From: Porticoccus sp. W117
Lineage (GTDB): Bacteria > Pseudomonadota > Gammaproteobacteria > Pseudomonadales > Porticoccaceae
Reading direction: 5' to 3'
NCBI RefSeq assembly: GCF_030341905.1
Contig: NZ_JATAAF010000012.1
Coordinates: 17,406-81,405 of the forward strand
DNA: 64,000 bases
Position numbers and translations under genes: made by a program. A model generated the notes under the pieces. The model worked only from the letters and a program-made list of their open reading frames with translations. It searched no databases and was not told the origin of the DNA. This document shows, piece by piece, positions 50,686-53,312 of the stretch (position 1 is the first letter of the stretch; each line of letters opens with the position of its first letter).

Positions 50686-51312
50686 CTAGTCTCCCCCACA
50701 GCTACCACATGAGCTGCTGCAACCTCCACCACAGCGACCGTCTTTACCACCACCTTTACCACCGAAGCTGGCAAACAAAAATCGCAGAGCCAAAAAGCCC
50801 ACGACACACCAAAACCCTATTTCTAACCAACTGGTGCTTTGATCCCCACTTTCTGCAAAGGCAGTCGCTACGGTTCCTGCTAACGCTGCGGGTACAAACC
50901 ACTTCAGTATGTGACTCTTATTATTTGGCTTTGAATTCCATACTAATTGTGGCGGCTCTTTGCCAAATTCGGCTCGATAAAGGGCAAGGGTTTTCTCGAA
51001 TTGCATTTGCATCTGAGTATCTGAGGGAGTGTGATGCAGCTCGGCTCCAAGTATTTCTGAGCAAAACCGACCCCAGTAGGATTTAGTGAATGTCAGGTGT
51101 AAATGCCATACAAGATCAATCGCAGGGGAGGGTGAAACCATACCTTGCTGCAAGGTGGCCAGATAGCAAAATCGCTTGTATTCATCTACTACCTCTAGAC
51201 AGTGATTATGCTTCCAGCCAGTTTCTTGCTTTAGCTTGGTGATAAATAAATCATATTGCCGATCAGCAATTTTGTGATTACGAAGCCGATTCCATAGTTC
51301 TTGATTTGTCAT
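50686..51312 (-). CDS. DUF1399-like domain membrane protein with C-terminal Gly/Cys-rich tail
   Basis: 208 aa. N-terminal ~140-aa domain with IDLVWHLHLTFTKSYWGRFC (reminiscent of the plant/bacterial glycine-rich-domain protein family). One TM helix (WLEIGFWCVVGFLALRFLFASF). Tail GGKGGGKDGRCGGGCSSSCGSCGGD. ATGA start/stop overlap with the upstream NTase gene. Confidence 0.6.
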   Translation of the reverse strand: MTNQELWNRLRNHKIADRQYDLFITKLKQETGWKHNHCLEVVDEYKRFCYLATLQQGMVSPSPAIDLVWHLHLTFTKSYWGRFCSEILGAELHHTPSDTQMQMQFEKTLALYRAEFGKEPPQLVWNSKPNNKSHILKWFVPAALAGTVATAFAESGDQSTSWLEIGFWCVVGFLALRFLFASFGGKGGGKDGRCGGGCSSSCGSCGGD

Positions 51313-52106
51313 GCTACCCCCAATACTGAATGAAACAACTCGTTCAAATCTGACATATCAGGCCTAAGCATTGCCTTATCCAAATCAAGGTTGCTCAAAC
51401 GCTCAATCTCCGATTCCACATAATCATTGAGCGCCTTGATGGCGGGTACAAGCTCTTTTTCGGTGCTGGCTTGTTTGCGTTTCAAAAGAGCAGTTATCTC
51501 CCGATCAAGTTCTGATCCGTCAGGCACTAGCTTGCGCAGCCGATCAAATTCGATGGGCGGAGGTTCGCGGTACTCTTCTAACCAGCGGACAGAGAGCAGG
51601 GGGCGCAGCACATAGAAGTACTTTTTCAGGGGTACGATTTCTGCTTGCAAGTAACCACGGTAGTTGGTTTTGGCCATACTGCGATAATGATAGATGCCTT
51701 TTTCAACAGAGTATCCCCGGCTAAGCAAACTTCTGGCTTGTTCAGCAAAGTGGCCATCATCTACGTACACAATAGGTGATTGGAGCCACTCCACAAACGA
51801 GGGGTTAGACTTGCTGAAAAGCCTCAGTGCTTTGCGAACATCCCAGCCATTGATGTCTATTTCGTCGACTATCTCGTATTCGATCACATCCCGTTTATCT
51901 TCCAGATCTACAGCCACATACCAATCTTTTGGGTGCGCGTAGATAAAGCGAACATCAAAGTCGCTGTTTTGTGAGGCGAACCCCCAGGCTCTGCTGCCGG
52001 ATTCCACAGCGTACAGAATTTTGACGCTGTGTTCTTTTTCGGCGGCGCGTATTCGTCGCAGGATTTCTGCTCGGGTTTCTTTAGGTATCACATGTTCCAT
52101 CATCAT
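51309..52106 (-). CDS. Pol-beta-superfamily nucleotidyltransferase (RlaP/PF10127-like)
   Basis: GS-x9-DxD NTase motif in [27 protein letters not shown]. 265 aa. Confidence 0.7.
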   Translation of the reverse strand: [265 protein letters not shown]

Positions 52107-52163
52107 GATGTCACCTATCAGTGAAAGCCATCTATTCGCCGCAATAGCAAATAGATGGCGGGT

Positions 52164-53312
52164 TTAGCTGTTGGGAGACAACTTGACCATATCATTCAGC
52201 ACGCTATCGAGACCACCGTAAACGGAGATCTTGTCGATGCGGCCGGTGACACGCTCCAGTGCTTCCAGTTCTTTCAAACGCAGCAGCATTGGGTTGTTTT
52301 CCATCAGCTTGGCGGTGTTATGCAGGGAGCGCATCGCCTGAGTCTCCTCGCGACGCTTGATCAGGTTGGCTTCAGACTCTTTTTGAGCCTCTACAACCTG
52401 ATTCAGAATTTCCTTCATATCACCGGGCAAGATAATGTCTTTTACACCAACGCTTGCCAGTTCAATTCCGTACTCGGTCAGCTTGCTGCGAATACCGTCT
52501 GCAATGGCGACGTTCAAGCTGTCTTTGTCTTCCAGCAAGTTATCCAGCGTCTGGGTTCCTACCGCTTCGCGAAGGTGCAGTTGCAGCTCGCGATAGACAA
52601 AGTTGGCGAAGTCGTTCAGCTTGAGTGCAACGATCTTGGGGTCGATCACCCGGTAGCTACCGCTTAGGTTTACCCGCAAGCTGACACGGTCTTTGGTCAG
52701 GATTTCCTGGCCGCTGACTTCGATCGCTTGCAAGCGCAAATCCAGCAGTTTGACGGCTACTGAGCGGTTGTACCTCCAGTAACCGTAGCTTCCTGGCTGC
52801 AGCAGCTCCTGAAACTTGCCATTAACGGTCAGAAGACCCACGTGCTCGTCGGGTACCTCCACATAGTTGATGGCGTTGGAGGCGTTGCGGCTTTTGCCAA
52901 TGGCCAAACCGCGGCCCAGCAACTTCAGCAGTTTGCTATCAATGGCAAACTTTTCGCTGATATCGATCACATCAATACGCACGTCTTCGATTCCCTTCCA
53001 TACGGCAAGGAAGGTGCCTGGTGCAAGAATATCCACCAGGTGACCATCGCGGTAGAACAGGCCTACCTGCATATCGGTCAGCTCAAAGCGGTCAATAAAA
53101 CCATTCAGCTTTTCGGCCTGAGTATTGAGCAGGAACTTGGCTTTGGCGTGGTCAAAAACAATGTTAGTGGCATCGTATTTTTCCAGGCGAGTTTTGCCAG
53201 CCAATGCGTTAATGCGATGGCGGCCGGGCTCAAGTACTCGGTCCAGCCGGTTGCGCCGGTACAGTAATGCCCGCTCGTTATCGGCGATATCTACAGTATT
53301 CCATAACATCAT
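52164..53312 (-). CDS. SPFH/band-7 (stomatin/prohibitin/flotillin-like) domain protein
   Basis: 382 aa. SPFH-like core (ILTKDRVSLRVNLSGSYRVIDPKIVALKLND) and a coiled-coil C-terminal region. No NfeD partner gene adjacent. Confidence 0.7.
   Translation of the reverse strand: MMLWNTVDIADNERALLYRRNRLDRVLEPGRHRINALAGKTRLEKYDATNIVFDHAKAKFLLNTQAEKLNGFIDRFELTDMQVGLFYRDGHLVDILAPGTFLAVWKGIEDVRIDVIDISEKFAIDSKLLKLLGRGLAIGKSRNASNAINYVEVPDEHVGLLTVNGKFQELLQPGSYGYWRYNRSVAVKLLDLRLQAIEVSGQEILTKDRVSLRVNLSGSYRVIDPKIVALKLNDFANFVYRELQLHLREAVGTQTLDNLLEDKDSLNVAIADGIRSKLTEYGIELASVGVKDIILPGDMKEILNQVVEAQKESEANLIKRREETQAMRSLHNTAKLMENNPMLLRLKELEALERVTGRIDKISVYGGLDSVLNDMVKLSPNS

Follow-up and report, generated by a model that had tools for sequence, protein, structure and literature searches.

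The 64,000-nucleotide stretch of DNA analysed here (the window), for which the names attached to identical proteins in the sequence database point to Porticoccus sp. W117, carries on its minus strand three closely spaced genes: one for a soluble SPFH (Band-7) protein, one for a Pol-beta nucleotidyltransferase (NTase) of the RlaP family and one, here called gene 3, for a UCP032817/GRDP-like protein (Table 1). A preliminary description, made from the letters alone, had singled out this trio. Its three minus-strand open reading frames (ORFs), the 57-bp gap between the SPFH and NTase genes and the ATGA in which the NTase stop overlaps the gene 3 start are all confirmed, and Pfam supports the SPFH and Pol-beta NTase family calls (Band_7 and PF10127). 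The order of features in the window is rtcR<>rtcB-rtcA-(tRNA array-HNH)-tRNA-like RNA-SPFH-RlaP. The regulator gene rtcR is divergent from rtcB-rtcA, and rtcBA lie on the same strand as the SPFH gene, with rtcB 3.6 kb upstream of the SPFH start. The preliminary description had placed rtcBA-rtcR about 2.5 kb away, across the tRNA array, and had suspected a link between them and RlaP. Pfam verified all three rtc genes, and the hunch proved well founded.

Table 1. Genes, RNAs and other features of the locus, with the basis for each assignment.
Feature	Coordinates	Strand	Basis or description
Gene 3, 208 aa, UCP032817/GRDP-like	50686..51312	-	All-alpha N-domain, 1-2 transmembrane helices, Gly/Cys/Ser-rich tail
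RlaP NTase, 265 aa	51309..52106	-	Pfam RlaP PF10127 E 2e-86; PHROG 14344 E 3e-74
Soluble stomatin-type SPFH/Band-7 protein, 382 aa	52164..53312	-	Pfam Band_7 E 7e-33, 114.6 bits
Large conserved structured RNA filling the HNH-SPFH spacer, ~540 nt (predicted ends)	53345..53912	-	Alignments A2, A3
b7a (Band-7-associated) tRNA-like module	53708..53782	-	ARAGORN "tRNA-Met(CAU)"; Rfam tRNA 63.6 bits
HNH endonuclease, 198 aa	53913..54509	-	Pfam HNH_5 E 2.4e-16
tRNA array: Asn(GUU), Leu(UAG)-like, His(GUG), Gln(UUG), Lys(UUU)	54615..55127	-	ARAGORN and Rfam, Leu-like gene excepted
tRNA-Leu(UAG)-like gene, oversized variable arm (tentative)	54890-55033	-	Direct reading and fold, z-score -2.6
rtcA, RNA 3'-terminal phosphate cyclase	55799..56815	-	Pfam RTC E 1.1e-78 and RTC_insert
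rtcB, RNA 3'-phosphate ligase	56911..58137	-	Pfam RtcB E 6.5e-133
Sigma-54-type promoter-like site TGGCCCCCGCCTTGCT	58186..58201	-	~50 bp 5' of rtcB; 1 mismatch to TGGCAC-N5-TTGCW, consensus match only
rtcR, sigma-54-dependent activator with RtcR (CARF-like) N-domain	58347..59942	+	Pfam RtcR E 1.8e-84, Sigma54_activat E 4.6e-47

The SPFH and RlaP proteins and their genomic neighbours

The SPFH protein combines a stomatin-type core with an extra beta-rich N-terminal region of ~150 amino acids (aa) and a long C-terminal helix. Its closest relatives by sequence are archaeal and human stomatin (E 5.5e-24 to "PH stomatin" over residues 189-358); in NCBIfam it has only a sub-threshold HflK match. 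The AlphaFold2 (AF2) model, of moderate confidence (predicted local distance difference test, pLDDT, 68), has helices at residues 297-338 and 341-358. Foldseek matches this model to stomatin cages (E 2e-11), to the cages of HflK/C, prohibitin, QmcA and flotillin, and also, at E 4.7e-7, to the cage of the human vault (9mxv_A). The stomatin-type SPFH core and the long C-terminal helix are shared with the stomatin, HflK/C, prohibitin and flotillin cages. Unlike these, the protein lacks a membrane anchor and an NfeD partner: we found no transmembrane (TM) segment (maximum 19-residue hydropathy 1.06), and its gene is flanked by RlaP and the tRNA-like RNA instead of an NfeD gene. One marginal match was obtained by tblastn against 50,697 phage records, and thus we consider this type of SPFH protein not to be phage-borne.

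Within residues 1-180, the beta-hairpin motif with which an SPFH domain normally opens is present three times in tandem (~7-35, 76-105 and 151-179). The combination of beta repeats, SPFH domain, helix and dedicated non-coding RNA is reminiscent of the vault (MVP plus vault RNA), a resemblance that is architectural only.

We surveyed 80 loci that encode SPFH orthologues (45-77% identity, one genome per species scanned) from Cellvibrionales, Microbulbifer, Kangiellaceae, Hahella, Ketobacter, Methylococcales and other groups. Labels such as L009 and L095 denote related SPFH loci. Neighbours were identified by tblastn and ARAGORN, with partners scored within 10 kb of the SPFH gene; 60 of the 80 loci are full-length. 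At 78 of the 80 loci a same-strand tRNA-like gene precedes SPFH at a distance of 230-520 bp. RtcB is encoded at 63 loci (52 of the 60 that are full-length), RtcR at 56 and RtcA at 39. HNH homologues are present at 22 loci, mostly directly 5' of the tRNA-like RNA, and RlaP at 18 (directly after SPFH in five, plus L009). No gene 3 homologue was identified at any of the 80 loci. Across this set the SPFH orthologues track rtcB and not mobile-element genes. In the case of the closest orthologues (70-82% identity, from metagenomic relatives), the SPFH gene invariably follows rtcR<>rtcB-rtcA and is separated from it by a non-coding gap.

A census of same-strand ORFs within 6 kb 3' of SPFH, among the same 80 loci, identified RlaP at 17 loci, an RNase Z-like metallo-beta-lactamase (MBL) protein at 9, a second RlaP-like family at 8, a CCA-adding enzyme and an RtcB paralogue at 5 each, and RtcA at 4. 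All of the recurrent families are tRNA/RNA end-processing enzymes, and gene 3 is not among them. The region 3' of SPFH appears to be a variable cargo slot (e.g., in L019, L057-L061, L065, L067, L070, L094, L095, L014, L022, L031, L041 and L048). Its cargo also includes an HD-like protein and, in L095, an RtcB paralogue followed by an RF-1-domain protein.

The NTase scores 290 bits against the RlaP profile (cut-off 23), with profile positions 3-248 of 249 covered. Its Pol-beta signature is GS-x10-DFD, which fits G[GS]-x(9-13)-DxD; the motif had been recognised in the preliminary description, with the spacing given as x9 instead of x10. No sequence in the PDB matches RlaP at E<=1. Neither RlaP nor gene 3 has a match in NCBIfam, which also rules out a named antibiotic nucleotidyltransferase. 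As reported in papers that cite it, the work of Burroughs & Aravind (2016) introduced RlaP as "RNA ligase-associating Pol-beta", predicting that it restores nucleotides lost from cleaved tRNAs before ligation. In the window, RlaP shares a same-strand locus with rtcB, and thus an association with an RNA ligase. A December 2025 preprint describes RlaPs from P. fluorescens (PfRlaP) and P. aeruginosa (PaRlaP) that add one or two nucleoside monophosphates (NMP) to RNA 3'-OH ends, favour the 5' half of a cleaved-tRNA mimic and are inactive on DNA or protein; RlaP was required to regain aminoacylation after excessive damage. RlaPs of different subfamilies have been recruited beside SPFH: identity between the RlaP of L095, a close relative, and that of the window is only 36%.

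A large structured RNA upstream of the SPFH gene

The tRNA-like module upstream of SPFH was considered as a decoding tRNA-Met and rejected. It has a G1.A72 mismatch (with CCA directly after it), and at orthologous positions its "anticodon" takes 25 forms across 79 loci (CAU 26 times, GUU 8 and UUU 5, with AAU, AAA, UAU and AGU among the rarer forms). The loops range from 4 to 9 nt and are of non-canonical length in 18 of 78 loci. Only 26 of 78 loci have a CCA close to the 3' end. Across 79 loci, conservation of the D and T arms is 81-87%, and measured per column (0.64 against 0.62) the anticodon loop varies no more than the acceptor stem. Because the module is conserved and non-decoding, it is unusable as evidence of insertion beside a tRNA gene, and it should be neither annotated as a decoding tRNA nor taken as a sign of horizontal insertion. 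The "tRNA 3' fragment" plus tRNA-Met, which the preliminary description read as the geography of horizontally acquired cargo, are instead modules of a conserved non-coding RNA.

A single structured RNA, conserved and with strong covariation, takes up the entire 600-nt spacer between the HNH and SPFH genes; it is organised around the tRNA-like module and has no Rfam family. In 5' to 3' order, the RNA comprises a 5' domain (~53886-53787), the tRNA-like module, a hairpin (53705-53691, GUCGUC...ACGAC), a GNRA mini-hairpin with a near-invariant extra T-arm after it (53680-53652; the T-arm, GGGGUUCGAnUCCCC, is the supposed tRNA 3' fragment), another hairpin, a rod domain of ~260 nt (53617-53357) closed by GAGGCCCAUGG / GGGUGGGCCUC, and a U-rich tail. 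In L014-L072 the same RNA occupies the stretch between ~130 nt before the tRNA-like gene and the start of SPFH. G-U pairs are frequent, and we place the RNA on the SPFH strand on this basis.

RNAalifold predicts 85 pairs on the spacer alignment, 62 of them with compensatory changes. For the 56 pairs of the rod domain, 88.4% of cells pair, compared with 66.2 +/- 1.1% after shuffling and ~40% with the partner slid; the covariation score is 0.68 (0.24 shuffled, 0.13 slid; 0/500 shuffles reach the observed value), and these contrasts are somewhat inflated because the structure was predicted on the alignment on which it was tested. Compensatory changes occur in 47 of the 56 rod pairs. In the closing helix they include GAGGCUCAU/GUGAGCCUC, GGAGUCCAU/GUGGACUCC and GAGGCUUCU/AGAAGCCUC, and many are independent. 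The 110 nt 5' of the tRNA-like module are also conserved and form a three-way domain, in which a helix (GUUUGG/CCUAAAC) surrounds two covarying hairpins; 97.5% of cells pair in this 5' domain, versus 35-39% when slid. A census of the RNA modules in the most distant loci, made with regular expressions, is crude and noisy and is used only qualitatively.

A conserved TGGCAC 5' of the tRNA-like module was considered as the -24 box of a promoter. We rejected this and read the motif as RNA structure, because its "-12" part is not conserved and covaries as a hairpin.

A scan of the spacer from the window and three relatives against Rfam 15 returned tRNA matches only, apart from a sub-threshold match to YrlA (Y RNA-like) in L089. 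This weak match (29 bits, threshold 69) falls at the junction between two tandem tRNA-like genes. Such pairs, in place of a single gene before SPFH, are found in Cellvibrio and Methylococcales (L076, L078, L080, L082, L083, L086, L087, L089 and L091-L093), the second gene lying ~70 nt upstream of the b7a module.

Gene 3, the tRNA array and the HNH gene

The features that the preliminary description assigned to gene 3 are present: a soluble domain with the motif IDLVWHLHLTFTKSYW, a hydrophobic helix (residues 165-183) and a Gly/Cys-rich tail. The AF2 model adds a weaker second helix at ~133-153. This architecture of N-domain, hydrophobic helices and Gly/Cys/Ser tail is common to the homologues of gene 3, as is the signature D-x2-WH-x-H...TKSYW...C...HH-x-P, with D66, W69, H70, H72, TKSYW, C84, H93, H94 and P96 invariant. 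The proposed likeness to DUF1399 stands in so far as a match to PF07173 exists (residues 16-79 only); at 18.5 bits it is below the cut-off of 22.7. The precomputed database annotation is PF27765 (UCP032817-like). Gene 3 shares with both families the WHxH...TKSYW...HH motif region, and with plant GRDPs a Gly-rich character, but it differs from the plant proteins in its bacterial layout of N-domain, TM helices and Cys/Gly/Ser tail. Plant GRDP/DUF1399 proteins have stress phenotypes and no known biochemistry. The N-domain is modelled confidently by AF2, and this model gave no informative fold match and no structural relatives in the PDB. The Cys/Gly/Ser-rich tail resembles metal-binding or thiazole/oxazole-precursor-like sequence.

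The family includes at least 4745 cluster representatives at E<=1e-3 and is large and usually stand-alone. Three homologues on long contigs have unrelated neighbourhoods without SPFH or RlaP, and the four nearest metagenomic relatives lack gene 3. A 207-aa ORF after RlaP in L095 was considered as an equivalent and rejected: it is unrelated (E 0.24) and has an HD-like look. In the window, the start of gene 3 overlaps the RlaP stop by 4 bp, and its end is convergent against the next gene. We conclude that gene 3, although physically in the operon, is most likely a lineage-specific neighbour without a conserved role.

All four of the called array tRNAs encode CCA. The Leu-like gene, missed by ARAGORN and Rfam, has an acceptor stem (GCCCCAU/AUGGGGC) followed by A and CCA; its anticodon loop reads UUUAGAU, its variable region (~67 nt) is branched and its T-arm is atypical. 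The interval from tRNA-Lys to the HNH start contains an orphan T-arm-like sequence (GGCAGGTTCGATTCCTGC, ~54520-54600, minus strand). No rest of a tRNA is recognisable around it, and it may be a decayed member of the array.

Arrays of 5-18 tRNA genes with an HNH gene recur in 12 of the 60 full-length rtc/SPFH loci (L009, L014, L022, L025, L028, L036, L038, L043, L048, L054, L061 and L067), on either side of the core. In L025, L028 and L048 a second type of RtcB (56% identity) is encoded inside the array. A recurrent neighbourhood of tRNA array, HNH endonuclease and RtcB is also a feature of the long tRNA arrays (L-arrays) of cyanobacteria, which are co-regulated with an HNH gene and rtcB, and whose tRNAs have been proposed to act as spares or sponges (Santamaria-Gomez et al., 2021, PMC8421152). 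The present array differs in being short, with 4-5 genes (relatives reach 18), in coming from Gammaproteobacteria and in its link to the SPFH gene and b7a RNA.

The locus as a probable part of an extended rtc RNA-repair system

In our reading, SPFH and RlaP form the far end of an rtc RNA-repair locus of extended type that matches the predicted RtcB/Band-7/b7a-tRNA/RlaP system, and we estimate the probability of this reading at about 80%. The preliminary description held that the trio matches no named system. However, an SPFH protein with a tRNA-like RNA and RlaP beside RtcB had been predicted in 2016: a 2018 paper that quotes Burroughs & Aravind (2016, Nucleic Acids Res 44:8525) places Band-7 and b7a-tRNA beside RtcB. 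SPFH and RlaP are already predicted helpers of RtcB and RtcA, and the three genes do not make up a new defence system. As far as the 2016 system can be compared through the papers that cite it, it shares with the window an SPFH gene beside RtcB, a tRNA-like RNA beside SPFH, RlaP in the locus and control by RtcR. The window differs in that the tRNA-like module sits inside a ~540-nt covarying RNA, that a tRNA array and HNH gene lie between rtcA and this RNA, and that a GRDP-like gene ends the operon. What remains novel is the large structured RNA and the recurrent tRNA-array/HNH insertion.

Two known kinds of locus are comparable. The rtc loci of Pseudomonas (rtcR-rtcB-RlaP-rtcA; that of P. aeruginosa PA14 harbours the gene for the SPFH protein PaFlo8) contain the same gene families, with RlaP between rtcB and rtcA rather than after SPFH. 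Salmonella rsr-yrlBA-rtcBA has rtcBA under RtcR/sigma-54 control, an RNA-binding scaffold protein and a non-coding RNA with a tRNA mimic, all with predicted counterparts here. The scaffold in the window is SPFH and not Ro60/TROVE, and the RNA is not a member of the YrlA family (no Rfam YrlA match in the window).

The healing of RNA ends by RtcA and their sealing by RtcB are established enzymology, around which a mechanism can be proposed. Ribotoxins or stress nucleases would cut tRNAs, leaving 2',3'-cyclic-phosphate and 5'-OH ends. RtcR would sense the fragments and turn on the sigma-54 promoter of rtcBA, by analogy with Salmonella, where tRNA fragments activate RtcR. RtcA and RtcB would heal and then seal the ends, and RlaP, if it behaves as the Pseudomonas RlaPs do in vitro, would add one or two nucleotides back to trimmed 5' halves. 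The SPFH protein may oligomerise by its C-terminal helix into a ring or cage and bind the ~540-nt RNA encoded immediately upstream. The resulting particle could be a platform that concentrates damaged tRNAs and repair enzymes, the role of Ro60/Y-RNA in rsr-yrlBA-rtcBA. The array may supply replacement or decoy tRNAs. A broader proposal, which we advance tentatively, is that the ~540-nt RNA, with the b7a module as just one among five or more domains, represents an undescribed class of large structured bacterial RNA that forms with SPFH a vault-like or Ro/Y-like cytoplasmic cage, serving as platform or toxin decoy of RtcB tRNA repair, with RlaP, CCA-adding enzyme, RNase Z and spare-tRNA arrays as exchangeable clients.

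Several points weigh against placing SPFH and RlaP in an rtc repair system. We know of no experiment that ties Band-7 or the RNA to repair, and binding of the RNA by the SPFH protein is inferred purely from adjacency. RlaP is present at only 18 of the 80 SPFH loci. Elsewhere in Gammaproteobacteria, where orthologues of this enzyme at 67-71% identity are common, most of them stand alone, with neighbours such as Endo_dU, KptA and PhyH, or MerR and 2-thiouracil desulfurase. The December 2025 preprint itself flags a mismatch, in that RlaP yields a 3'-OH and RtcB requires a 3'-phosphate. A terminator-like hairpin (55170-55155) lies between rtcA and the tRNA array, and a search before the SPFH gene and the RNA found no second sigma-54/RtcR-type promoter comparable to that of rtcB; thus, co-regulation with rtcBA is not demonstrated. 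Deletion of PaFlo8, the only genetic data, gave no phenotype in general assays, among which ribotoxin stress was not included. The 2018 paper describes b7a-tRNA as lacking experimental validation.

The preliminary description had favoured a self-contained, horizontally acquired conflict or anti-phage system beside a tRNA gene, in which SPFH would sense or scaffold, the NTase would signal or modify and the small membrane protein would be the effector. The tight packing (57-bp gap and ATGA overlap), the TM helices and unusual Cys/Gly tail of gene 3, and a GC content slightly under the window mean agree with this. The AT-rich island exists as a shift (49.4% GC for the trio, 52.8% for the whole window), but it is mild and the flanking genes are similar (darB-like cluster 47.3%, rtcA 48.6%, rtcR 49.3%). 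The modular conflict-system logic finds no support in PADLOC-DB v2, where RlaP and gene 3 have no match, SPFH has only a chance-level Cas11f match (E 0.0039) and the HNH gene has generic HNH-domain matches. The conserved partners of SPFH are tRNA/RNA end-repair enzymes, the SPFH gene tracks rtcB rather than mobile-element genes, and what had been taken for a tRNA is conserved as part of the SPFH locus. Gene 3 is found at none of the 80 SPFH loci nor in the closest relatives, and its homologues stand alone elsewhere in unrelated contexts. Since the trio is not conserved as a unit, an outcome that the preliminary description had itself named as counting against it, the hypothesis fails, and we regard such a system as extremely improbable. 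Under a different insertion history, the tRNA array, gene 3 and all that lies between them would be the cargo of a mobile tRNA-array element of the L-array type, with a homing HNH endonuclease, that landed by rtcBA, so that adjacency would reflect how the block was inserted and not function. Cyanobacteria are known to have long tRNA arrays that are accompanied by a conserved HNH gene and linked to rtcB; in the present survey arrays are confined to 12 of 60 loci and lie on either side of the core, and a Y1 transposase flanks one relative. Yet the SPFH-RNA pair adjoins rtcB in most array-free loci (e.g., L011, L013 and L015), and the data show no regular flanking by integrases or repeats of SPFH-RNA pairs away from rtc genes. 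The cyanobacterial array, HNH gene and rtcB are, moreover, co-regulated, which argues for function. We consider this explanation quite unlikely.

The remaining alternatives concern what individual components do. The SPFH-RNA particle might be a decoy, sponge or sensor for anticodon nucleases instead of a repair scaffold, its fast-evolving anticodon loop mimicking toxin targets. CAU, GUU and UUU, which dominate among the 25 "anticodons" of the 79 loci, correspond to tRNAs that VapC, colicin E5 and PrrC/RloC attack, and the loop changes identity and, in 18 of 78 loci, length while the D and T arms are conserved. Per column, however, the loop does not exceed the acceptor stem in variability, and the conserved partner genes all encode repair enzymes. 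There is direct evidence for neither mechanism, scaffold or decoy, and we consider the decoy rather unlikely. Gene 3, for its part, could be a true lineage-specific accessory in the variable cargo slot, either tethering the otherwise soluble SPFH particle to the membrane or serving as a metal or redox cofactor protein. Its 4-bp overlap with the RlaP stop, its convergent position at the end of the operon, its location in a slot that is variable in relatives and the missing membrane anchor of SPFH are consistent with this, and its invariant His, Cys and Asp suggest a metal site. The association is nonetheless a single case (n = 1), with no homologue within 10 kb at any of the 80 loci; the family is large and typically stand-alone, and the other cargo genes all encode RNA enzymes, whereas gene 3 has no RNA-related feature. 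An accessory role is therefore unlikely.

If SPFH and RlaP do belong to rtc repair, the locus bears on an operon, RtcB/RtcA, that is widespread and whose physiological substrates and helpers are still poorly understood, and on a Band-7/b7a-tRNA branch that has been a purely computational prediction since 2016. Together with its more than 80 relatives it defines a conserved core (RtcB, the large tRNA-containing RNA and a soluble SPFH protein) and a set of exchangeable accessories (RlaP, CCA-adding enzyme, RNase Z, second RtcB, tRNA arrays and HNH). This turns a vague association into testable hypotheses, namely that SPFH binds the RNA and that the particle protects or repairs tRNAs under ribotoxin attack.

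Convergent to the trio, at 47942-50634 on the plus strand, we also identified a three-gene cluster for a ketosynthase of the StlD/DarB family that scores under the DarB cut-off, an iron enzyme resembling haem oxygenase and a DUF6999 protein. The cluster is as AT-shifted as the trio (47.3% GC) and looks like a dialkylresorcinol-type or related small-molecule pathway.

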